Source: Squalus acanthias (taxonomy: Eukaryota). From it: a stretch of DNA of 64,000 bases. Positions within the stretch are counted from its first letter, which is position 1; every line of letters starts with the position of its first letter. Location of the stretch: positions 133,736,001 to 133,800,000 of the forward strand of contig CM059431.1 of the NCBI GenBank assembly GCA_030390025.1, in the 5' to 3' direction. Position numbers and translations under genes: made by a program. Below, piece by piece: positions 26,160-64,000 of the stretch. The notes under the pieces are model-generated. The model saw nothing but the letters and a program-made list of their open reading frames with translations, searched no databases and was not told the origin of the DNA.

Positions 26160-29100
26160 TGTTGTGGCTGCCGCGAAGCACGAATTGAGGCCGAGTCAAT
26201 ATGTGGAACACATAGCTTTTAATTTCATCTCTGCTGGTCAAAATGGCTGCGACCACATTTCTCTCCAAAACCCTGAGGCCCCGCCCACTCCTTTTTTCCT
26301 GCCTTAAAGGCAGCATGCGCCTTAAAGGCAAGGTGCCCGATTTATTGTCCACGGACGGAAAAGTGGATTGCGCCCGTTTAGGTGGCGATCCGCCACACAG
26401 CTCCCCCCAGAATCCGCTTAGGAGGTGTGGACGAGATGGTGCGGCGGTCTGATGGGCCGGCCGAAGCGGCTCTTGTAGGATGCCGGTGGACGTGGAACGG
26501 CCGGCGTGGAGCAGCCGGGTGAACTGGCTTGAGGGCAGGTCGGCCGTGTGGTGGTGGACGAGCTACAGGGACCTGCTCACCGGGCTCCGAGTGTGCTGGC
26601 TTGAGTCGGTCAACCGACACTTTTTCGGTCCTGTCGCCCACTTGCAGGGTGAAAAATTAGTCCCCAGCCTGTAGCACCTTGTAGGGCCCGTCGTACGGGG
26701 GTTGAAGGGGTCCACGGTGGGCGTCGTGCAGGACGAAAACAAACCGTGCCTGGTGCAGGCTTAGTGGGACGTGTGAGGTGGATTCGCCGTGTCGGGCAAT
26801 GGGCACCGGGGCGAACTGTAGCGCTGGTGAGGCGCAGTCGTGGCGTTGCTGGTCGGCTGACCAGGGTGTCATGGCGGTGGGCAGGAACTCGCCGGATACG
26901 CGCAGTGGCTGACCGTACACGAGCTCTGCCGCCGATGCGTGGAGGTATTCTTTAACCGCGGTGCGCAGGCCGAGGAGGACCCACGGGAGTCGGTCGATCC
27001 AGGCGCCGTTCTGGAGGCTGGCTCGAAGAGATGCCTTCAAGGATCTGTGGGACCGCTCACACAGTCCGTTGGCTTGGGGGTGGTACGCTGTGGTGCGGTG
27101 AATGGTCACCCCGAGATTGCGTGCGACGGCGGTCCAGAGTTCAGAGGTAAATTGCGGACCTCTGTCCGACGTCATGTCGGAGGGGACGCCGAACCGTGCG
27201 ACCCAGGTGCTGACGAAGGCTCTGGCGATGTCGGCGGTGGTGGTAGAGGTCAGTGGAATTGCCTCGGGCCAGCGCGTGGTGCGGTCAACGATCGTCAGCA
27301 AGTGCGTGTGGCCTTGCGACGGCGGCAGGGGCCTGACGATGTCCTCGTGGATGTGGTCGAATCTACGCGAAGGGACGGTAAACTCCTCGAGGGGTGCTTT
27401 TGTGTGTTGCTGCACCTTGGCCCGTTGGCAGGCTAGGCAGGAGTTGGCCCAAGTACGCACATCCTTGCGAAGGCCGCGCCAGACAAAGTGGTTGGCTACC
27501 AATTTGATGGATGTGCGGGCGCCGGGGTGGGAGAGGTTGTGGAGAATGTCGAATACCCGGCGGCGCCAGGACGCTGGGACGACGGGCCGAGGTTGACATA
27601 GGGATATGTCGCACTTGACCGTGACTGCGGTCGGGCCACAGGCGACATCGGCCAGGCGTAGCCCTGGTAGGTTGGTAGGTGTGGAGAGCAGATCAGGGTC
27701 GGTGATCTGGTCTGCTGCGAGTTGAGCGTAGTCGACTGCCAGGTGTGCGGCATGGATGGCGGGGCGGGATAGGCAGTCGGCTAACACATTGTCTTGGCCG
27801 GAGACGTGTTGGATGTCCGTGGTGAACTCGGACACTGCCGCGAGCTGGCGCTGCTGCCTGGCGGACCAGGGGTCGGTTGTCTTTGCCATTACGAATGTCA
27901 GGGGTTTGTGGTCGACAAACGCAGTGAAGGGGTGGCCCTCCAGCAAAAACCGAAAATGGCGGACCGCCAGGAACGGCGCGAGGAGCTCGCAGACGAAGGT
28001 ACTGTACTTGCCCTCTGGGGGGCGTAGTTGGCGGCTGAAGAAGGTAAGTGGTTGCCAGGCGCTGTCGACCCACTGCTCATACACGACGCCGACTGCGTGG
28101 TCGGAGGCGTCCGTGGTTAGCGCTACCCTGGCATTGGGCCGTGGGTGCGCGAGCAGGGTGGCGTTGGCGAGCGCGGTCTTGGTGGAGTCGAAGGCGGCGG
28201 ACGCGTCTGCCGTCCATTCGACCGCCATAATGCCGCTCCTGCCCCGGAGGGCTTCATACAGGGGCCTCATGAGGGACGCCGCTTTGGGGATGAAGTGGTT
28301 GTAGAAATTCACCATCCCGAGGAACTCCTGGAGGCCTTTGATGGTGGTGGGGCGGGGAAATTGTTGGACGGCCTGCACCTTGGTGGGCAGGGGAATGGCC
28401 CCAGCATGGGTGATGTGGTGGCCGAGGAAGTCGATCTTGTCCAGGCCGAACTGGCATTTGGCGGGGCTGAGGATGAGCCCGTGGTCGCTGAGGTGCCCGA
28501 ACAGGATGCGAAGGTGTTCGAGGTGTTCCTGCTTGGAGGAACTGGCTACCAGGATGTCGTCCAGGTAGACGAACAGGAACTTCAGGTCCCGAAGGACCGA
28601 GTCCATGAGCCGTTGGAATGCCTGGGCTGCGTTTTTGAGGCCGAAGGGCATCCGCAGGAACTCGAAAAGACCGAAGGGGGTGATTTCGGCCGTCTTGGGG
28701 ACGTCTGCGGGGTGGATGGGGGCTTGGTGGTAGCCGCGCACCAGGTCGACCTTGGAAAAGACTGAGCGGCCGGCCAGTCTAGCCGAGAAGTCCTGGATGT
28801 GCGGCATGGGGTACCGATCATGGGTGGTGGCGTCGTTGAAGCGGCGGTAATCCTTGCAGGGGCGCCAACCCCCGCCTGGTTTGGGGGCGATGTGGAGTGG
28901 GGAGGCCCAGGGACTGTTGGAGCGGCGGATGATGCTGAGCTGTTCCATGGTGGCAAACTCGGTCCGCGCGATCTGCAGTTTGGCCGGGTCCAGCCTGCGG
29001 GCGTGGGCGTACACTGGGGGTCCTGTGGTGGGGATGAAGTGTTCCACCCCGTGTTTGGCGGCCTCCGCGGAGAAGGTCGGATTGGTAAGGGCCGGGAATT

Positions 29101-30506
29101 CGGCCAGGAGTGCCGAGTAGTCATCCGTGGCCCGGGCGTGGCACTGTGATGCCATGTCGGCGGGTTGACGGGGGGCCATGGTGCCCAGGATGGGGGACAT
29201 GGTGTTCATGTCCACGAGGCGGTGTCGAGGGATGTCTACCAGTAGGCCGTGGGTGCACAGGAAATCTGCGCCGATGAGAGGGGAGAGCACCTTGGCAGTG
29301 ATGAACTCCCATCGGTAGCGGCGACCAGCGAGGTCGAGGGTGACTGTACGGGTGCCGTACGTCCGGATGTCCGAGCTGTTAGCAGCAGCCAGCGCCGGTC
29401 CTCGTTCGCCCTTTTGGATGTCGAGGGCGGAGGCCGGGATGATGCTGTGCTGAGCTCCAGTGTCGCACAGGAACCGGTGGCCGGTTTTGTCATCCGTGAC
29501 GTACAGCAGGGAGCCCGCGTGGCCCACGGCCATCGCAGGGGCTGGTGCGGGGGCGGACTTAAAAGAGCAGGGAGGTGTGCACCGTTGTGCCCTGGCGCCA
29601 AACCGTGCGTGGTAGTAACAGTGGCCCGGGTTAGTGGGGCGCGAAGGCCCCGTGAGCCCGGTGGCTGGGCCTTGTGGCCGCGTGGTGGCCGGTGAGGGGC
29701 ACGCCCAGGCAGTGGCTGCCAGGTCCGGAGTGACGTCGCGGCTGGAGTGAGCGGACAGCAGCTTGTCGGCCTCATCGGCCAGGGCTTCCAGGTCCGTGAG
29801 GCCGGACGCCATGATCGCTGGGCGGATGCTGAGAGGTAGCTGGCGGTTGAACAGTGTGCGGAAGAGGGATCCGGATGGGCTCTCGTCGGTGAGGGAGAGC
29901 ATGTGGGAGATGAGGTCTGATGGTGAGGCATCACCGAGGCCTGGAAGGTCGAGGAGGTGGCAGTTTCGCTGGTATGTCGAGGCGTAAATTTTTTAAGGAG
30001 CGCGGCCTTAAGATGTGCATACTTGCCCTCCTCTGGTGGGTTCTGCAGCGCTGTCCAGACCTTCGTAACTGTGGAGCTACCGAGTGATGTGACGAGGTAG
30101 TCGTACTTCGTCCCATCTGTAGTGATGAGTTGCAGCCGAAATCGTGACTCGGCTTGGAGGAACAAGGCTTCGGGCTGGTTTTCCCAAAACTCCGGCAGTT
30201 TCACGGAAACTGCGTTCGTGTCCGCCATTGCAGTGCTCGGAATATGTTCTGAGCATCGGGGTCACCAATGTTGTGGCTGCTGCGAAACACGAATTGAGGC
30301 CGAGTCAAAAGTGGAACACATAGCTTTTAATTTCATCTCTGCTGGTCAAAATGGCTGCGACCACATTTCTCTCCAAAATCCTAGAGGCCCCGCCCACTCC
30401 TTTTTTCCTGCCTTAAAGGCAGCATGCACCTTAAAGGCAAGGTGCCCGATTTAATGTCCACGGACGGAAAAGTGGATTGCGCCCGTTTAGGTGGCGATCC
30501 GCCACA
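26160..30506 (-). mobile_element. Full-length Ty3/Gypsy LTR retrotransposon, CsRn1-like clade
   Basis: 238-bp TG..CA LTRs (30269-30506, 26160-26397); TSD GGGT; tRNA-Trp-type PBS TGGTGACCCCGA; PPT GGGGGGAGCTG; CHCC knuckle. Confidence 0.95.
26378..30228 (-). pseudogene. Gag-Pol polyprotein (Gag, protease DTGA, RT YLDD, RNase H, integrase with GPY), with one frameshift near 29980 and a stop at 26657
   Basis: ORFs 29236-30228 (N-terminal part), 26657-29902 (1081 aa) and 26378-26641. Confidence 0.92.
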
Positions 30507-39804: not shown

Positions 39805-40566
39805 GGGCCAAAAATTCGGCCCTTCCCGGGTGAGTACACAGTGCGTACTCACCCGTAACGCGTCCCGAAGTGCCGGTTTCCTGCATGCACTGCGCATGTG
39901 CGGGAAACCGGAACTTCCGGTATGGTGAAGGGGGCAGTTCCTAGGTGAACCGCGTGCATGGTAGAGGCTGCGCGCACGCAGCGAACTTAGATTTTTTTTC
40001 AGGTTTCTACGGGAGGGTAAGTAGTGAAGAACCTACGCTTATAAAAAGGAGGCGCAGGACCCATTTTCAACAAGGTAAGTGGTTAATTAAGTATAATTTA
40101 AAAAAAATTTCAACAGGTTTATCTTTTTTAGATACTTTAAAGAAAGGTAAGTTTATTTTTATCACTTTTAAAAAGTATTTTAATTTTTTCAAAAATTAAA
40201 ATTTTTGTTTAAAGTGGTTAATTTATTTAACTATAGTTATTTTATAAATGTGATGGTTTTTTTAAATTTATTTTAAGTTTAACTGTTCTTTTGGGGCCGA
40301 TTTCAATTCACAGATTTGACAGGTCTCCTGTCAAATCTATGAATGAAAGATGGTCTGCTGCCATTGGCTCTCCATGGCCCACGTGATCCCAAGGGACGCA
40401 TCGCACTAACTACGCCCCTGGGACACGCAAGCACTGCGCGCCGGCACTTGGAGCAGGCCCAGGAGCTGAAGTTCCCGTGGGCCCAAAACACAATGGCAGG
40501 CACGGTAGGTAAGTGCGCGCGTGATCCTTACCCCCGCGGCAAGCCGGAGAGGCGAATTTCTGGGCC
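39805..40566. mobile_element. Hairpin-rich MITE, copy 1
   Basis: TIR GGGCCAAAAATTCG / CGAATTTCTGGGCC; homologous to 61860-62593. Confidence 0.8.
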
Positions 40567-43028: not shown

Positions 43029-43908
43029 TGTAAGATTTCCAAAATTTGCAGATCCCCAAAAATATATCGAAAGGAAAAAAATAAGGACTTTGGAACTTTA
43101 AAGGAAACATGCCTGGACATGTCCGGCACATGGATGGTCTGGGAGTTCAAAGACCAGCAAACATTAACATTTGGACAATAGGCCCTGGGGAAAGGCCGCC
43201 CCACCCAAAACACAGAGCCCAGCAAGGAACCCAAAGCAGGAGAACAATGCAAGCTTCCGTGGAACAACAACGCAACAGGATCTAAGCCATTTGATTTGGT
43301 TTAGCACAGTTGAAAGCCCATCAAAATTTCAACAAAGACAATGAACAGGCCTCACCTGAAAACTCACTGCATCACGAAACCAGTTTTTCGTGAGGAGTTT
43401 TGTGGGGGGTGGGGGGGAGGGGGCGGGGGCGAAAAAGGACTATATCTATAGCAGGACCCAAGAGCTCTCTCTTTCGACTCGCTGACTATGCTGGAAACAA
43501 GGCTCTCTCGCAGCACTGCCCAGAAGCCACATGGTAAAGGAAGACGTTCGATGACCAGAATCACCATCGACTTACCTGGCTGGATTTCGTACTGTTAATA
43601 CCCCTGTCTGGTGAGCATTATCCCTGATCTCCTGAAACCCAAACCTAGATAGAAGTGGGATTTTTGGGAGGGATAAAGGTTTTTTTTTTCTTGTATACTG
43701 TAACCTGTTTAAGTGTGAAGTATGTTTAAGTTTGTTACCTTTTAACTTTAATAAAAGTTATAGTTCTTTCATTGGAACCTGTGGTCTACTGCATCTTTAT
43801 TCACAACCCCTAAATAAGTCCAAGTTTTGAACCTGGGGCGTGGGAGCGATTCGAACCGCTCACTGAGTCAGGGGAAAGGCTGACTCCTACCACAACCCAC
43901 ACCCTACA
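43029..43908 (+). repeat. 5' LTR (880 bp)
   Basis: TATA-like box near 43441; donor GTGAGC at 43611; AATAAA at 43750; direct repeat of 49482-50375. Confidence 0.95.
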
Positions 43909-43910
43909 AA

Positions 43911-45710
43911 ATGGCGACTGTGGCAAGGACTTGGCAAAAGGGTTGTGAAGCAGTAGACACTGATTCAGAAGAGAGAACTGTAATGGAAGAGAGGATTTCA
44001 GATTATGTATTCAGCAAAGTGAATATGGAAAAGAAGTGGGTCACTAATCTATTAAAAACTGGGTGTCCGGTAGATGCAGCAGCTAAATGGACAGAAGGGA
44101 AGGATCATAAAAAATCCTTAGAAAAGGCAGTCTGGCTGATGTGCTTCAAGAAACAGATCCAACTTTTGGACAGACTCGTTGAAGCACAGGCAGCCGAGAT
44201 TCGGGAGTCGGCCCTGGAAGTCCAAACGTAGGCCCTAGCAGGGGAGAAGTTACTGTTAGCATTGCAGGCACTAAACCAGGAAAGGGTGCAGTTAGTGGGG
44301 GAACACAAGTCCCGGCAGGATTATTTACAGTGCCAGGTCACTGAGGCCAAGAACAATGAGCTGAGGTTGCGGGAAAAGAATGCCCGCCTGGCAAAACAAG
44401 TAAGAGAGCAGGAGGAGACAGTAAAAGGCTTACAGGCAGCCTATAAGGTAATGAGCGCACAGGGGTTTGAGGATGCGGACCATGGCCCCTGCCAGAAGCA
44501 GATAGAGAGTCTCAGCCTTGCTCTAAGGAAGGCAAGAGGCGTGGCGTGCCTCATAAGCCCAAGTGCAGCCCAGGTCGACTTTACAGGGAACCTGGGGAGA
44601 ACGGTTCAGACACCAAAGATAGCGCCAAGGGACGACCCGGTTGAGGAGCGGGAGGGCCCACGACCACCACCCATAGCGCCAAGCTTTAGCGACAGTCTGG
44701 CAAGAAGAAGGGGTGGAGTTAGGGGCAGAAGCTGAGGTGGAAAAAACCCCGCAAGAGAGCTGGGACCGGGGCCGATGTGCCCGGCCCGGCAGGACAGATT
44801 TGGCCCACCCGCTGATAACGGGGATGCGGGACCCCTCCAAAGCCAGTTCGTGGCTCCCCACGGTACATAACAGCTTAGGGTAATGGTAAGCCACCTGAGT
44901 AAACTCACCCAACAAGGGGACCCCTCAGTTCACTTCATAGAGGTAGAGCAGGCAGCAGGCGTCAACGGCTGTGACGATGCCGAGATGGCAAAAATGCTCC
45001 TGTTCTCACTGGACAGCCGGTTATACCAGTCTCTCTCTGCTGAGAGCAAGAGAGGACAGAATGGGTATGCGGCCATCAGAGAGGAAGTTTTAGAGGCAAT
45101 GGGGATGAATGAGGGAAGTCCTTTCTCCCAGGTGGAGAAAACAGTGCAGCTCGCAGGAGAGACCCCACAGGCTTTTGCAGACAGGCTGTGGCCCGTGTAC
45201 AGGGGTGCTTGTGGTGGGGATCTTAACAGGGCTCACCTAAACCGGGACGAGCTGGCCCACTGGCTCCGTAGCCTAGTGGCAAACAGCTTGCCTCGGATCA
45301 AAACCCAGGCTGAGCTTTGGTTTGACCCGAAAGACCCCCGGGTCACCGAGGAGGCAGTGGTCAGACAGCTGAACCTGGCCTACCGGAACGGGAGAGGGGC
45401 GGAAGAGCCCCCACAAAAAGGGAAAGTACATGAAATAAAACCCGGCCAGAGTAGGAAGGAGTGGCATCAGGAGGGGAATAACCCTTCCAGCACAAAGCTT
45501 AACTGTTATGGGTGTGGGAAGGATGGTCACTGGAGGAAGGAGTGTAAGAATCCTTGGAAGGATAACAAGGGAAAGAATTCCTCAGCCCCAGCCCAAAAGG
45601 CAGAGACAGGGATCCCTCCCGCCACGGTCAAGTCATTTTTGGACACCATGAGGTCCCTATTGACTGGCCCAGGGAAGGTAGCAGCAGCCCAATACAACCC
45701 AGACTTCTGA
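43911..45710 (+). pseudogene. gag: gag (600 codons in one frame, with three premature stops at 44229, 44733 and 44868)
   Basis: N-terminal coiled-coil; MHR-like QLAGETPQAFADRL; CCHC knuckle CYGCGKDGHWRKEC. Confidence 0.85.
43912..43931 (+). promoter_or_regulatory. Primer-binding site, tRNA-Arg(TCG)-like
   Basis: TGGCGACTGTGGCAAGGACT 3 nt after the LTR; tRNA assignment is from memory and allows G-U pairs and one bulge. Confidence 0.6.
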
Positions 45711-46520
45711 CTGGAACCAGCGCAGCCTGCCTACCTGTGTCCCCTTGAAAGACACGCACAGGAAGAGACCTCCCGTAAGGAGGCCAGGTTAAATGAGCAG
45801 GCCTTACGGGAGGAGAACGCCCGCTTAACGGGGAAAGTAGACGGGCTAGAGGGGCAGCTTAGAGACAGGGTAGCCAGGAGCAGGGAGTATGAGGATTTAA
45901 ACCATGGGCCCTGTGAGGAAAGGATAAAAGGTCTGACCCAAGCCCTATCCAAAGCCAGAGGGATGGTTTGCTCAACAACCCCAGGGGAATTCACCACCCC
46001 GCAGTTGCAAGCCATGGTAGCAGAGTTGACCAAACTAAAACAGAATAGAAATCCTCAGCCTCCAGCAGGCGAGATTACTCAGAATGCACAAGCAGGGGCG
46101 CTGGCCTGTCTTGAGGGAGGAGTCACCCAGGCCCCTGTTCAAACCACCCCCCCTCTCTTCTGGGACTCAGGTGGGGAGGAGGAGGAGCCCGAACCAGATA
46201 GCCCCGCCCCCGATCCAGGTGTTGAACCAGCACCAGGCTGCGAAGAGTCACCTGACCCTGAAACAGGTTTAGAAGAGGTACAGCCTGAGGATAGAAATCC
46301 CCAGCCAGTGGCAGTGGAAGATTCACAGACCACACAACAGGGGCAGTGGCTCGTGTTAAAGACCCACCAGCCAGAAAACCCCCACCAGCCAGAGCCCCTG
46401 GAAGGTCCCCACGTACGCCACAGCCAAAGAAACCGTGGTCACCGGCTCCCCAATTTAAAAGGGCCGCCCCTCAAGCCAGGGGTCGATCTGAGGACAGAGG
46501 TTCCCGGCCAGCAGCCATAG
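45711..46520 (+). CDS. In-frame post-gag ORF: duplicated Gag coiled-coil plus acidic/proline-rich tail; no pol motifs
   Basis: Open from the gag TGA; LREENARL...NHGPCEERIKGLTQALSKARGMVC parallels gag LREKNARL...DHGPCQKQIESLSLALRKARGVAC. Confidence 0.6.
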   Translation: MEPAQPAYLCPLERHAQEETSRKEARLNEQALREENARLTGKVDGLEGQLRDRVARSREYEDLNHGPCEERIKGLTQALSKARGMVCSTTPGEFTTPQLQAMVAELTKLKQNRNPQPPAGEITQNAQAGALACLEGGVTQAPVQTTPPLFWDSGGEEEEPEPDSPAPDPGVEPAPGCEESPDPETGLEEVQPEDRNPQPVAVEDSQTTQQGQWLVLKTHQPENPHQPEPLEGPHVRHSQRNRGHRLPNLKGPPLKPGVDLRTEVPGQQP

Positions 46521-46841
46521 GCTGCAAGGGACCAAAGGTACAGGACACGGCCACACCAAAGGGAGTAGGGTGCTGCAGCCCGAACAGGGCTTAGTCTGGC
46601 CGCTCGGAGATGGGCGGCGAATGTACATAGTTTTTGTTTGTTAAATTTTGAGATTGTTAAGTTTGGGTGTTTTTAGTTAAATTTTAAGTAAGGTGGTTGG
46701 TAGTTTTAAAATGTTATAATTTCAAGAGTGTTTTGTATTGAGTCGAGGTCGCAAGACCCGACTATGCTTCACCCAAGCCAGAGAATCTACTTGGGACCTG
46801 GCTATATGCTCTTGTGTCTCCTTACAGAAGGGATTGTCGAT

Positions 46842-49193
46842 ATGAAGGGGGGCATACTCCTACTCGCTCTGATAGGAATGAGCGCTGGGAGGCGAGGTGA
46901 CGTGGAGGACTCCCACATTTTTGGGTGCTCAGGAGAGAGAGCACCGGTGGTGACTGCGGGTGGCAGCAAGCGAGGCGTGAAGGAGCTCGCTACCTATTCC
47001 CACGTGGGAAGATGGCCAGGGTGGCTGGGATCTAACTCCACCCGATACTCCAGTCAGACCGGGCTCACCTACGGGGAGGCCTCCCTCCCCTGTCCCAGCA
47101 TACAGGTTGTAGCCACTCGGGTCGGGGTCACTGAGGGGAAACGCGTGTGCCTGACCTGCAGAGGACAGATTCCCCTGGGAAGGTGGTGGTGGCTCAGGAA
47201 GCTGAGCAGAGACATGGGGGACCGTACAGCTGACTGGGAGCGACTGGGGAATGACACCCATCGGACCATTACGGGGGACCATAGGGGGGTGAGCGTGTGC
47301 TGGGACAAGTGGTGGAAATCGGAACAGGGGATTTATGTCTGCATGTGGGGGTCGCGGAAGGCCTGCCCCACGGGCATATCCATTATCTTTTCCGCAGCAT
47401 GGCTGGATAAGGGGAAGGGGGTGGAATGGGATTCCCACCTACACACTTGCATAGTCCCGCCCTCTCCAGCCCCAGTCAAGGCCACTGAACTCGTGGCACA
47501 CGCCCGTAAGCCCCTGCCCACGACCCAGACAGCAAGGACACGCACAGAGACATGCCCTACCACCACCAAGGGACCAGGGAATGGGCTGGTACTAGTGCCA
47601 ACCGAAAAGGTGCTATACCAGGGGGTACACTACGCGGTAGCTTCCGTGATCCTAAACCTCACGGAGGTACACTTACCTGAGTGGTGCCCCAAAGAGACGG
47701 AACAGCTATACCAGGCCCTGTTCAGAGAAATGTTCAGGAAGTTCTACGAGTTCGATTTCGCAAACATAGACAAAGCAGAACTGTACACTGCACACACTGA
47801 GTATTTTAGCAATACGGGGAGACAAAGGAGGGGAGCCTGGAATGATATTTTTACAGCGTATAATACAGGGTCCTCTGTCATCAACAGTCTGGATGACATA
47901 GAATTGCAGACACAAATAAATGGTTTAAAAACACAATTGCGCAAAATCTTAATGGATGAAAATACAGTAGTGGGCTCAGAGTTACACGAGGACCAAGCTA
48001 TGACGGTTCATTTAAAAGAAATCATTGCTGAGCTGGAAAGGCACGCAAAGACGGTAAATGCACTCATACGGGAGGACAGGAATGCATCAGACCAGGCTGC
48101 ACAGAACGAGGTGTGCGTACTGTACGGGGCATGGTTGCTAGGCGAGGGCCGGAGTAACCTGGAGGATTTAAAGCAAGGTTTAGTCCCCTCCTGGATCAGC
48201 AACAAGCACCTCGCAGCCCTCCACCCATTTGAGAATTCACTAAGCCCGTGTCAGCTCTGTCTAGCCTCTGAAGCCTACACTGTACCAGTAGATTGTGGGT
48301 GTTCCAATCACACTATCATGGGGATAGTGGTGAGGATGCCGGTCATGGGTGGGACTGCCCGACCCGCACCGGTATACAGGGTGGAGAACATTGGAGTCAT
48401 TCAAGGGGGTGCACACATCCGTTTCACAGCGGTCCCACCTTATGTCATAAAGTGGGAGCACGCTATGACAGGTACTGACCTCTCCGGGTGGCGGAGCCGG
48501 GGTCCACACATAATACTGTGTCCCCAGCACTTGAACGCCTATTCTAAACCACAGTGTGGGTTTAAAGCTGCGAGCACACGACCTATAAATTGTACCATGG
48601 AAGCCATGGCACAAGACCATGTTCCCCCACAGGTAACATATATAGGAGGTGGGACATATTGTGTCACCACCAGCGCGCCTCACTACCAGTATGGACAGCA
48701 TACCTGGTGTCCGGTAAGTGACAGCAGTTTCTGCTTTAAACCCGAGGCAGAAGTTCAAGTTGCCCAGGAACAGATTGTCCCCATTCCTGAACCCTCCACT
48801 GTTCACCTCACTGTAACACAAAATTTCACCAACCTGCAAAAATATGTAGCACATTTTGGCTACGAAATTCCCCCTCTACCAGAACGCCTTACCAAGTTAC
48901 TAAAAGCTGTAGAGCTCTCTCAAAAACATTTCTACACTTTAGAACAGAATACACACGAGATAGAGAGAGAGATTCAAGGTATCACAGTCCCACCCTGGTG
49001 GGACATCTTCGAAAACATAGAGGTCCCTTCATGGGTCAGAATGGCTTCCCACCTCCTCGTAGTTTGCCAACTGGGAATAGTATTGTACCTGGTGTGCACT
49101 CAGTGCAAGGGAAAGGGCAGAATACTACAGTTCCGAAATGAAAGGACTTGGAGGAAGCATTATGCTGAGGTGGAGAGAGATACACCTGTTTGA
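46842..49193 (+). CDS. env: Intact envelope/fusion glycoprotein, 783 aa
   Basis: Splice acceptor at 46827; signal peptide MKGGILLLALIGMSAG; Ig-like domain; furin site RQRR at 47820-47831; heptad; Cys-rich core; TM near 49041-49105. Confidence 0.88.
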   Translation: MKGGILLLALIGMSAGRRGDVEDSHIFGCSGERAPVVTAGGSKRGVKELATYSHVGRWPGWLGSNSTRYSSQTGLTYGEASLPCPSIQVVATRVGVTEGKRVCLTCRGQIPLGRWWWLRKLSRDMGDRTADWERLGNDTHRTITGDHRGVSVCWDKWWKSEQGIYVCMWGSRKACPTGISIIFSAAWLDKGKGVEWDSHLHTCIVPPSPAPVKATELVAHARKPLPTTQTARTRTETCPTTTKGPGNGLVLVPTEKVLYQGVHYAVASVILNLTEVHLPEWCPKETEQLYQALFREMFRKFYEFDFANIDKAELYTAHTEYFSNTGRQRRGAWNDIFTAYNTGSSVINSLDDIELQTQINGLKTQLRKILMDENTVVGSELHEDQAMTVHLKEIIAELERHAKTVNALIREDRNASDQAAQNEVCVLYGAWLLGEGRSNLEDLKQGLVPSWISNKHLAALHPFENSLSPCQLCLASEAYTVPVDCGCSNHTIMGIVVRMPVMGGTARPAPVYRVENIGVIQGGAHIRFTAVPPYVIKWEHAMTGTDLSGWRSRGPHIILCPQHLNAYSKPQCGFKAASTRPINCTMEAMAQDHVPPQVTYIGGGTYCVTTSAPHYQYGQHTWCPVSDSSFCFKPEAEVQVAQEQIVPIPEPSTVHLTVTQNFTNLQKYVAHFGYEIPPLPERLTKLLKAVELSQKHFYTLEQNTHEIEREIQGITVPPWWDIFENIEVPSWVRMASHLLVVCQLGIVLYLVCTQCKGKGRILQFRNERTWRKHYAEVERDTPV

Positions 49194-49481
49194 ATTTTTT
49201 TATTCTGTGTTCCTGAATAAAGATTGTTGTTTTTTTGTGTTTTGTTCTTTTTAATAAAGATATGTGTTTTCCCAAGCAGTGCAGGGGTGTCGGACCCTCT
49301 CCGTGCTTGGTTGTGAAATAAAGATTTTCTTACCTGTATGTACCTAAAACACCACATTTAAAGGGGAATGTATGTTTGGGGTTTTAGTTTAGGTAATACA
49401 GGGGAAGGTTGGTTTTCGGGGATCAGGAATTTTGTCCACCCAGGACGATACTGTAGTGAACTGAAGTATCGCAGGAGGGAC

Positions 49482-50375
49482 TGTAAGATTTCCAAAATTT
49501 GCAGATCCCCAAAAATATATCGAAAGGAAAAAAATAAGGACTTTGGAACTTTAAAGGAAACATGTCTGGACATGTCCGGCACGTCGATGGACTGGGAATT
49601 CAAAGACCAGCAAACATTAACATTTGGACAATAGGCCCTGGGGAAAGGCCGCCCCACCCAAAACACAGAGCCCATGGGAATGCTAGGACCAGCAAGGAAC
49701 CCAAAGCAGGAGAACAATGCAAGCTTCCATTGAACAACAACGCAACAGGATGTAAGCCATTTGATTTGGTTTAGCACAGTTGAAAGCCCATCAAAATTTC
49801 AACAAAGACAATGAACAGGCCTCACCTGAAAACTCACTGCATCACGAAACCAGTTTTTCGTGAGGAGTTTTGTGGGGGGGGGGGGGGGGGGCGGGGACGA
49901 AAAAGGACTATATCTATAGCAGGACCCAAGAGCTCTCTCTTTCGACTCGCCGACTATGCTGGAAACAAGGCTCTCTCGCAGCACTGCCCAGAAGCCACAT
50001 GGTAAAGGAAGACGTTCGATGACCAGAATCACCATCGACTTACCTGGCTGGATTTCGTACTGTTAATACCCCTGTCTGGTGAGCATTATCCCTGATCTCC
50101 TGAAACCCAAACCTAGATAGAAGTGGGATTTTTGGGAGGGATAAAGGTTTTTTTTTCTTGTATACTGTAACCTGTTTAAGTGTGAAGTGTGTTTAAGTTT
50201 GTTACCTTTTAACTTTAATAAAAGTTATAGTTCTTTCATCGGAACCTGTGGTCTACTGCATCTTTATTCACAACCCCTAAATAAGTCCAAGTTTTGAACC
50301 TGGGGCGTGGGAGCGATTCGAACCGCTCACTGAGTCAGGGGAAAGGCTGACTCCTACCACAACCCACACCCTACA
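49482..50375 (+). repeat. 3' LTR (894 bp)
   Basis: Direct repeat of the 5' LTR with about 11 substitutions, a 17-bp indel and G-tract variation. Confidence 0.95.
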
Positions 50376-61859: not shown

Positions 61860-62593
61860 GGCCCAAAAATTAGTCTCACTACGCAAGAGTACGCACTGTG
61901 TACTCTCGCGTATTCTGTCTCCAATTGCCGGTTTTCTGCATGCGCTGAAAACCGGCACTTGGTGATTTCAAAAGGGGGCGGTTCCTAAGTGAACCGCGTG
62001 CGCGCTACAGGCTGCGCGCACGCAGTGCACTTAGTGCTTTGAACGCGCAGGTAAGCATGGAAGATTTTGCACATAAAGAAAGGAGGCGTAAGACCCTCTT
62101 TTAACAAGGTAAGTAGTTAATTAAGTATTATTTTAATTTTTTTTCAACAGGTTTATCTTTTTTAGAGACTTTAAAGAAAGGTAAGTTTATTTTTATAACT
62201 TTTAAAAAGATTTTAAATTTTTTCAAAAATTTAATTTTTTGTTTAAAGTGGTTAATTTATTTAACTATACTTATTTTATTAATGTGATGGTTTTGTAAAA
62301 AAATTTAATTGAGGTTTAGCTGTTCTTTTGGGGGGGGTATAGATTCATAGCTTTGACAGCCCTTGCTGTCAAAACTATGAATGAAAGATGGTGTGCTGCC
62401 ATTGGCTCTAACTGAATCACGTGATCCCAGAGCTCGCACGAATTAACTGTGTCTGTGGGATACGCACACACTGCGCGGTTGCAACCTTGAAACTAAAGTT
62501 CGTGTGAGCTCGGAAGGAAAAGGCAGGCGCGCAGTGAGATATCGTGGGGAAGCCTTACCCCCGCAGGAACGCTCCGTCTTTAATTTCTGGGCC
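61860..62593. mobile_element. Hairpin-rich MITE, copy 2, inserted between env and the 3' LTR
   Basis: TIR GGCCCAAAAATTA / TAATTTCTGGGCC; TSD ATT. Confidence 0.85.
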
Positions 62594-62840: not shown

Positions 62841-64000
62841 TTACGTGACACTTTCCTCGTTCACGCGAATGTAACGTTCTCTCCACTCACCTGTGTTCTC
62901 CTGCCTCGTGAGGCGTTTGCCTCTTTTGCAGTGCACGAACAGCAGGTACACTACAATTACAACTTGACACACTACCAAAATGTGGGAGGCTATCCTGATC
63001 CATGACGGGACTTCGATATTAGTGAACAGATCCCACCACGGTGGGGTTACTATGTCCAATATCTTTGCCCCTATCTCTACAGTTTTCTGTTTCAGGGTGT
63101 AAAAATGATTCTGTGATACCATGACGGCTTTTAAAATCTTGGTGAGGTGTTCAGGGAGAGGGGGAATGATGTATCCGAAATGCGCGATGAATCGCTGCAA
63201 GTCTGTGAAATTCTCTTTTACAGTGAGGTGAACAGTGGATGGTTCAGGGATCGGGTCAATTCGCTGCTGTGCCACTTGAACTTCAGCCCTGGGTTTAAAA
63301 CAGAAACTGCTGTCACTCACCGGACACCGGCTGTGCTGTCCATGCTGGTAGTGTTGCGCTGCAGTGGTAACGCAATACGTTCCACCCCCTATGTATGCCA
63401 CCTGTGGGGGCACATGATCTTGTGTCATTGCTTCCATGGTGCAATTCATGGGCTTCGCGCCAGCCGTTCTGAACCCGCATTGTGGTGTTAAAAAGGCATT
63501 CAAGTGCTGGGGACACAGTATGATGTGTGCTCCCCGGCCACGACAACCCGAGAGGTCGGTACCTGTCATCGTTTGCTCCCAGCGGATGACGTAAGGTGGG
63601 ACCGCTGCGTAGCGAATGTGGGCTCCCCCTTGAATGACACCAATGTTCTCCACCCGGTACACCGGGGCGGGCTTTGCTGTGTCGCCCAACACCGGCATCC
63701 GTACTACTATCCCCATGATAGTGTGATTTGACTGTCCGCAGTCCACTGGGACTGGGTATGCCTCTGAGGCTAGCCTGAGCTGGCACGGGCTTAATGCGTT
63801 CTGAAAAGGGTGGAGCGCCTGCAGGTGTTTGTTGCTTATCCAGGACGGGACCAAACCTTGTTTTAAATCCTCCAAATTACTGCGGCCTTCGCCCAGTAAC
63901 CACGCCCCGTATAGTACGCACACCTCGTTCTGCGCAGCTTGATCGGATGCATTACGATCTTCCCTGATCAGGGCATTTACCGTTCTCGCATGCTTCTCCA
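62841..64000 (-). CDS. env: Envelope glycoprotein paralog, C-terminal part (open to the window edge)
   Basis: Colinear with the env at 48040-49193 (LYGAWLLGEGRSNLEDLKQGLVPSWISNKHL...PPWWD..NIEVPSW, TM). Confidence 0.88.
   Translation of the reverse strand, partial: EKHARTVNALIREDRNASDQAAQNEVCVLYGAWLLGEGRSNLEDLKQGLVPSWISNKHLQALHPFQNALSPCQLRLASEAYPVPVDCGQSNHTIMGIVVRMPVLGDTAKPAPVYRVENIGVIQGGAHIRYAAVPPYVIRWEQTMTGTDLSGCRGRGAHIILCPQHLNAFLTPQCGFRTAGAKPMNCTMEAMTQDHVPPQVAYIGGGTYCVTTAAQHYQHGQHSRCPVSDSSFCFKPRAEVQVAQQRIDPIPEPSTVHLTVKENFTDLQRFIAHFGYIIPPLPEHLTKILKAVMVSQNHFYTLKQKTVEIGAKILDIVTPPWWDLFTNIEVPSWIRIASHILVVCQVVIVVYLLFVHCKRGKRLTRQENTGEWRERYIRVNEESVT

Follow-up and report, generated by a model that had tools for sequence, protein, structure and literature searches.

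In a 64,000-nucleotide stretch of the Squalus acanthias genome (assembly GCA_030390025.1, contig CM059431.1, positions 133,736,001 to 133,800,000 of the forward strand; hereafter the window), an endogenous retrovirus (ERV) flanked by long terminal repeats (LTRs) carries an env gene whose product, judging from structure models, bears a genuine but highly diverged immunoglobulin (Ig)-superfamily (IgSF) beta-sandwich N-terminal to a fusogen resembling the paramyxovirus and pneumovirus F protein. The parts of the env gene are as follows, with confidence of the structure model given as pLDDT (the predicted value of the local distance difference test) and selection as dN/dS (nonsynonymous to synonymous substitution rate).

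46842..49193, + strand: env, open frame of 783 amino acids from the likely start Met (ATG 46842)
46842..46889, + strand: hydrophobic signal peptide (about residues 1-16), predicted by inspection of the sequence
46890..47090, + strand: conserved pre-Ig segment (residues 17-83) with C29, a GRWP motif and sequon N65; pLDDT < 50, dN/dS 0.07-0.28 between subfamilies
47091..47399, + strand: Ig-superfamily-like domain (residues 84-186) with C106 (B strand), W117 (C strand), EQGIYVC167 (F strand), extra Cys 84, 103, 153 and 175, and sequon N137
47400..47552, + strand: linker and Thr/Pro-rich stalk (residues 187-237), which changes faster than the rest of env
47553..48791, + strand: paramyxo/pneumovirus-F-like (class Ib) fusion core (residues 238-650), from structural and profile matches
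47820..47831, + strand: furin-type site RQRR (residues 327-330) and, after it, the putative fusion peptide, positioned as in F and in the Env of lokiretroviruses
49044..49106, + strand: transmembrane anchor, from the sequence and the full-length model

Sequence marks and predicted fold of the Ig domain

An initial annotation of this DNA had placed an Ig-like domain at 47106-47345, that is, at Env residues 89-168, within the open frame from ATG 46842. Its landmarks were recovered: the B-strand stretch VGVTEGKRVCLTC terminates at C106 (47157), WWW occupies residues 115-117, 9-11 residues past C106, and SEQGIYVC terminates at C167, 61 residues from C106. A Thr/Pro-rich stalk follows (206-241), and then the F-like core. 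The domain is real but a little longer than the annotated span, since the strands of the model cover residues 88-183 and the structural matches 84-186 (47091-47399).

The marks of the IgSF are present in this segment. The spacing of C106 and C167 lies within the 55-75 residues usual for the superfamily, W117 stands where the C-strand Trp is expected (10-15 residues after the first Cys) and aligned to the Trp of CRTAM, and the D-x-G-x-Y-x-C tyrosine corner reads EQGIYVC in the window Env and DEGIYVC or DEGIYMC in relatives. The domain also has two extra Cys pairs and a Trp-rich E-F segment. A loose Ig pattern, which was written after the sequence had been seen, turned up in 27 out of 100000 shuffled versions of the N-terminal extension; in the six frames of the window it occurs only here. 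Ig_3 was the only Pfam family shared among the aligned members (14 of 21, best E 0.0014), and it matched the whole window Env at E 0.058. When a clean ten-sequence Ig profile was searched against the PDB, CRTAM came first (E 0.039), its V domain aligned over positions 9-101 of the 103 in the profile; six of the 11 matches were IgSF proteins or antibodies and five were unrelated. Language-model neighbours of residues 80-190 were Ig, V-set and I-set clusters with scores of 0.90-0.91, after an unnamed first match at 0.92, on a scale where 4-10% of shuffled proteins score as high as 0.9.

A full-length AlphaFold model of Env, built from a 50-row alignment (mean pLDDT 59), contains seven strands in Ig order at residues 88-94, 102-107, 115-121, 141-146, 149-154, 164-170 and 177-183. 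Among the best 50 VIA matches listed for this model, 38 aligned Ig domains to about residues 84-186. Comparison of these residues with I-set and V-set domains in the same matches gave Z scores of 8.1-9.4, root-mean-square deviations (rmsd) of 2.3-3.8 Å and 8-19% identity; the best had Z 9.4 and rmsd 2.9 Å over 91-100 residues. V-set and I-set domains tie among the structural matches listed, and residues 122-137, on which the question of the C'/C'' region turns, have pLDDT < 50. With an isolated model of the first 196 mature residues, all 50 matches listed were Ig-containing chains. The sequence evidence is faint but points one way, and together with the models it makes an Ig fold of residues 84-186 very probable; the beta-sandwich at the Env N-terminus on which the initial annotation depended is indeed predicted by structure modelling.

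Conservation and selection

The env family comprises at least 58 matches (57 scored of 13052 candidates), stop-free in 13 of the 56 long ones. In its own genome the Ig region has at least 150 matches (150 of 150 scored), all of them env copies at 81-100%. Eight residues, C106, W116, W117, C153, G163, Y165, C167 and C175, were kept in 30 of 30 loci, so that the canonical Cys pair and the Trp are conserved among family members as the earlier domain call had anticipated. W117 is the only one of the three Trp kept in every relative that reaches that point, and C106 and C167 are also kept in proteins of Rhinoraja (skate) and Pristiophorus (sawshark). A second element, which the initial annotation had pointed to beyond the window end, carries the same Ig domain at 61% identity, with both Cys retained and a canonical DEGIYVC.

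Selection was computed on the natural open frames of six subfamilies. The dN/dS of the Ig domain was 0.07-0.16 in 8 of 12 between-subfamily pairs, dS being saturated in the other four; that of the core was 0.08-0.15 and that of the Thr/Pro-rich stalk 0.26-0.43. This purifying selection indicates that the Ig domain was functional during replication and was not a passenger. In the deepest pairs, dN of the Ig domain was about twice that of the core (0.24-0.28 versus 0.12-0.13), as would be expected of an exposed binding module.

Some env genes are recombinant. The L018 gene (G000:C3020) resembles subfamily L033 at 95-99% from about codon 51 to 650 and the window copy at 99-100% from codon 651 onward, indicating that the ectodomain, including the Ig head, was exchanged between subfamilies; L019/L034 and L021/L035 are recombinant as well. 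Four database gene models (P0004, P0005, P0012 and P0034) join fragments of env with genes of the zinc-finger, Niban, cadherin and F-box kinds. These are probably annotation artefacts and possibly cases of exonisation. No data set containing the sequence is registered as RNA. No leader-to-env splice joint was found in contigs of four presumed-RNA runs covering the Ig region, a kind of contig that cannot show transcription.

The fusion core and the remainder of Env

The features of class Ib fusogens, namely a signal peptide, a furin site, heptad repeats and a C-terminal transmembrane segment, are all present in Env. In the full-length model, residues 245-650 matched F of human parainfluenza virus 3 (hPIV3; 1ZTM) at E 1.4e-10, and the core also matched F of parainfluenza virus 5 (PIV5; 2B9B) with Z 10.7 and foamy virus Env with Z 9.5. 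In the Atlas, the core is annotated as Baculo_F / Fusion_gly at 0.90-0.92. Its pLDDT is mostly 75-95 at 245-650, except for 313-410. A phmmer search of the whole Env against PDB sequences gave no match at E <= 1. Between the Ig domain and the core, 16 of the 36 residues at 206-241 are Thr or Pro, versus 13.5% in the whole Env. RQRR at 327-330 is the sole R-x-x-R before residue 400, and none lies between the Ig domain and the core; cleavage is therefore expected to leave the head attached to the N-terminal subunit. Residues 331-351 after RQRR are small and only partly hydrophobic, with pLDDT < 50.

The best viral match of the full model in BFVD was A0A384ZVF2 (928 amino acids), over 895 columns. 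The Envs of walleye epidermal hyperplasia virus 1 and walleye dermal sarcoma virus matched at E 8.9e-16 and 2.9e-12, which suggests that these epsilonretroviral Envs are F-like. They are termed only 'distinct' in PMC9967133.

Proposed function and origin of the Ig head

By analogy, we consider it reasonably likely that the Ig head on its flexible stalk attaches to a ligand on the cell surface and so takes the place of the attachment protein that paramyxoviruses have as a separate product. Env must supply attachment itself, because the proviruses have no separate attachment gene. Furin cleavage at RQRR would leave the head on the N-terminal (F2/SU-like) subunit, which would be held to the fusion subunit, with C282-C425 as the likely link. 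The head would then be displayed three times on the Env trimer and would bind its ligand, plausibly by edge or face contacts of the IgSF type, and this attachment would precede refolding of the F-like core. Of the two roles that the initial annotation had offered, receptor binding is thus a reasonable inference from position and analogy, and the immune decoy was not borne out.

Several observations weigh against this interpretation. The Ig HMM check that had been proposed did return Ig_3, but always under the Pfam cut-off (12.5-18.6 bits versus 30). The pLDDT of the Ig domain is about 50-66 in the full-length model and < 50 at 122-137 and 170-234. The isolated model of the 196 residues was poor (mean pLDDT 38.8, best Z 6.5) and had no Foldseek match at E <= 0.001. 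That the head is under purifying selection no weaker than the core's is compatible with a structural role too. No host donor gene for the Ig domain was recognised: in a word-limited profile search of 6768 candidates, the six matches at E <= 10 were all of the env family. Furthermore, heads are lacking in the related Envs P0047 and P0052 and in 22 of the 22 lokiretrovirus Envs whose N-terminus is visible, which shows that an F-type Env does not need one.

The strength of selection, the extra conserved Cys pairs and the conserved sequon would suit a structural cap or folding aid that packs on the prefusion trimer and stabilises it or shields epitopes, with attachment left to the core or to segment 17-83. 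That segment is conserved too, and its model confidence is low. The domain hangs, however, on the variable Thr/Pro-rich stalk, and the same slot holds unrelated domains in the sister clade; we therefore regard a cap as unlikely, though it deserves real weight. A variable stalk of this kind is typical of a mobile head. Recruitment as an immune mimic or decoy is a different matter. Here the domain would have been taken from a host immune receptor of the CRTAM, CD2/SLAM or TREM type and would engage immune ligands while displayed on the virion or on the surface of the infected cell, and it is true that CRTAM is the best sequence match, that immune receptors are frequent among the structural neighbours and that the distant Env P0039 has a Cys-less V-set-like head (V-set E 0.045). 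Solved Ig structures are dominated by immune receptors anyway, however, and the < 20% identity to any IgSF protein is less than a mimic would be expected to show. With no recognisable donor among the 6768 candidates and no secreted or separately spliced form seen in the contigs, the only material covered, we give mimicry a small chance. It is more doubtful still that the beta-sandwich is viral in origin or convergently Ig-like, as in the receptor-binding domain (RBD) of murine leukaemia virus (MLV), or that the Ig call was over-read from weak signals. The sub-threshold HMM scores, the middling model confidence, the missing donor and the failure to detect homology with the more distant heads are compatible with that explanation, but the three canonical IgSF marks are in register, D-x-G-x-Y-x-C occurs in several relatives, and four different methods all point to the IgSF and to nothing else.

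The initial annotation had described the head as a captured host Ig module. Its IgSF-like nature was upheld, but capture from a host gene was not, given that no donor was found, that CRTAM was the best match only at the E value above and that structural identity was 8-19%. Because the canonical IgSF marks are present, an ultimate origin from a host IgSF exon, too old for the donor to be recognised, is likely as far as the sequence goes.

The N-terminal slot in the wider clade

A search of the family profile against 1.84 billion representatives gave 54 matches, the long ones from sharks and frogs. The long relatives share the core start C-P-x(3-4)-G-P, and their N-termini differ:

No head: P0047, P0052
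Cys-rich head: P0014, P0026, L052, L055
Partial Ig motifs: P0013 and L051; P0020 and P0043; P0039; perhaps P0055

In a core tree of 16 rows, four of them partial and with two long branches that meet, the window family is sister to the group with Cys-rich heads (100/100), and P0039 has the headless P0047 as its sister (100/99). The distribution of head types on this tree indicates that the content of the slot changed more than once. We conclude that the Env N-terminus is a swappable slot.

A common origin of the heads was considered and rejected: comparison by hhalign of the family Ig profile with L051, L052, L055, P0013, P0014, P0020, P0026, P0039, P0043 and P0055 gave probabilities of 0.2-2.4%, at or near the level of shuffles, and heads were related only in the pairs P0013-L051, P0020-P0043 and P0014-P0026. 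In UniRef, P0013 is named 'Ig-like domain-containing'; the V-set match of P0039 was obtained in one scan and not in another. The heads of P0020/P0043, P0055 and L051 gave no Ig match in domain scans and are Ig-like by motif only. An independent Ig label thus falls on only two distant heads, and none of the distant heads has measurable homology to the window Ig domain, which tells against a bolder claim. We put forward only tentatively, as something that may well prove wrong, that these Envs form a widespread, hitherto undescribed F-type retroviral clade of cartilaginous fishes and amphibians whose slot was filled several times independently by host IgSF domains and other modules.

The same genome contains further F-type env lineages with unrelated N-terminal heads, L051, L052, L054 and L055 (G000:C4, C8, C3 and C11). 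The Envs of Pelodytes (P0020) and Mantella (P0043) have a furin-type site (REKR and RNKR, respectively) ahead of the head, and P0020 has an internal hydrophobic segment near the N-terminus that is reminiscent of the foamy virus leader peptide.

Comparison with known systems

Lokiretroviruses resemble the window family in their LTRs, a pol with dual RNase H and an F-like Env with a core start like xGP-x-x-G-[IL]-V-L, a furin site and a transmembrane anchor. In their Envs, however, the core comes right after the signal peptide wherever the N-terminus is visible, the 23rd being truncated (PMC7947760). Foamy virus Env (PDB 8RM0) likewise places its own receptor-binding module on a retroviral F scaffold, and foamy viruses share the 4-nt target duplication, whereas the foamy RBD is a novel fold inserted within the core and the module of the window Env is an Ig fold at the N-terminus (PMC11468914). 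The window Env also departs from the foamy layout in its short signal peptide, the absence of a leader peptide and the position of the head outside the core. The 'domain II' with an Ig fold that F and foamy Env contain belongs to the core and is distinct from the window head. In 'clade IV' class I glycoproteins, the coronavirus spike among them, an F-like core is similarly extended N-terminally by receptor-binding domains, but the extensions are several hundred residues long, are not described there as Ig and occur in other virus groups (PMC12583693). Paramyxovirus and pneumovirus F proteins (hPIV3 1ZTM, PIV5 2B9B, respiratory syncytial virus F) share the core fold at 245-650, the cleavage site and the heptad repeats; they lack an N-terminal head and are used with a separate attachment protein.

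In MLV, the RBD is followed by a proline-rich hinge. This N-terminal RBD of a gamma-type Env (1AOL) has been described as Ig-like (bioRxiv 2023.10.07.561363). Its fusion core is unrelated, it is not among the 50 structural matches listed, and the window head differs in having canonical IgSF marks. The I-set and V-set domains of obscurin-like 1, shark UrIg2 (V domain, 9DMX), IL1RAPL1 and CRTAM share the fold and the B-, C- and F-strand marks, but not the two extra Cys pairs and the Trp-rich E-F segment, and their identity is in the 8-19% range.

The arrangement had been thought absent from described F proteins. In the literature searched, of which coverage was incomplete, we found no description of an IgSF head on an F-type Env, and the word 'immunoglobulin' does not occur in the errantivirus preprint, the Odin, Troyka, teleost and jawless-fish ERV papers or a 2026 review of ERV structure. 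The logic is nevertheless less unprecedented than was implied, because F scaffolds are known to take receptor-binding modules at the N-terminus (coronavirus spike) or inserted (foamy Env; PMC11468914) and the MLV RBD is Ig-like (bioRxiv 2023.10.07.561363).

The provirus and its relatives

The provirus spans 43029-50375. It lacks pol, its gag is broken and its env is open for 783 codons. Other features of the window that concern the family are as follows.

43029..43907, + strand: 5' LTR (TG...CA), with a GCCT target-site duplication before it and a TGG stretch resembling a primer-binding site after it
43912..45710, + strand: gag, broken by stops and frameshifts, with an N-terminal coiled-coil part, a capsid-like part and a CCHC zinc knuckle (zf-CCHC E 0.0011); the same gene is found in other copies
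45711..46520, + strand: start of pro, then a second gag-like coiled-coil piece and a Pro-rich tail, which follows integrase in other copies
49482..50375, + strand: 3' LTR, 98.5% identical to the 5' LTR and followed by GCCT
62841..63998, - strand: C-terminal half of env of the second related provirus, whose Ig domain lies ~0.6-1 kb past the window end (L031:3633-3956)

The two LTRs differ by 13 mismatches in 876 aligned positions, and the GCCT flanks represent a 4-nt target duplication. This divergence corresponds to about 34 million years at the shark rate assumed in PMC4422223 or about 3 million at a mammalian rate, a tenfold uncertainty. Reverse transcriptase (RT), RNase H and integrase were not found in the window copy; protease, RT, tether, RNase H and integrase are present in other family copies, in broken frames. 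In the window copy, the second gag-like coiled-coil piece stands in place of pol at 45711-46520. The deleted layout recurs in L034, from which we infer a non-autonomous subfamily that spread with env intact. Gag and pro lie in one frame across a single stop both in the window (45708-45710) and in L033, L036 and L038, which suggests stop read-through.

Lokiretrovirus membership was the first reading, from the F-like Env and the dual RNase H. It was dropped because the RT motif of the window family is LPQGFHNSP, whereas all 13 published lokiretrovirus RTs examined read PFG (PFG..SPAEF / PFG..SP). The dual RNase H, seen as matches of both RT_RNaseH and RNase_H to the pol of copy L037, is common to all retroviruses. 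The closest RTs were those of amphibian and coelacanth ERVs (50-52%), and matches to solved RTs were to foamy virus (E 1.2e-51), MLV (E 1.1e-48) and Ty3 (E 7.9e-33). A quick RT tree of 74 rows, which included no sequence with the lokiretrovirus motif and no named class III references, placed the family outside the gamma/epsilon-like (99) and gypsy (100) clades and near the amphibian and coelacanth ERVs, a placement without support. On sequence grounds, the most fitting description of the virus is that of a class III-like retrovirus whose Env is of the F type. Lokiretroviruses were reported in none of three chondrichthyan genomes (PMC7947760).

Direct repeats with 80-87% identity lie at 39928-40400 and 61972-62438. 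As the latter coincides with the position expected for the second provirus's 3' LTR, 39928-40400 may be a related solo LTR. Elsewhere in the window, an element with a 1111-amino-acid pol frame lies on the minus strand at 26657-30261, and fragments of long interspersed elements are numerous. Judging from their motifs, we take the former to be Ty3/gypsy and the latter CR1-like.

Significance

An Ig head on this Env would be a third way of joining a receptor-binding module to an F scaffold, on a retroviral lineage with a non-lokiretrovirus RT and in a host group reported to be free of lokiretroviruses. The family, with its many Ig-region matches, also matters for the annotation of shark genomes, where its pieces land in chimeric gene models. 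Being compact, the IgSF domain lends itself to structural and ligand studies. In this clade, sister lineages combine one and the same core with different heads or with no head, which makes it possible to study how class I fusogens gain, lose and exchange their attachment domains. The acquisition of a head is a step that has been invoked for the coronavirus spike and foamy Env, where it is otherwise too old to see. If the tentative picture of repeated capture were true, these viruses would have gained new receptors by borrowing adhesion domains, and their Envs would be a natural record of a bare F scaffold acquiring a head.

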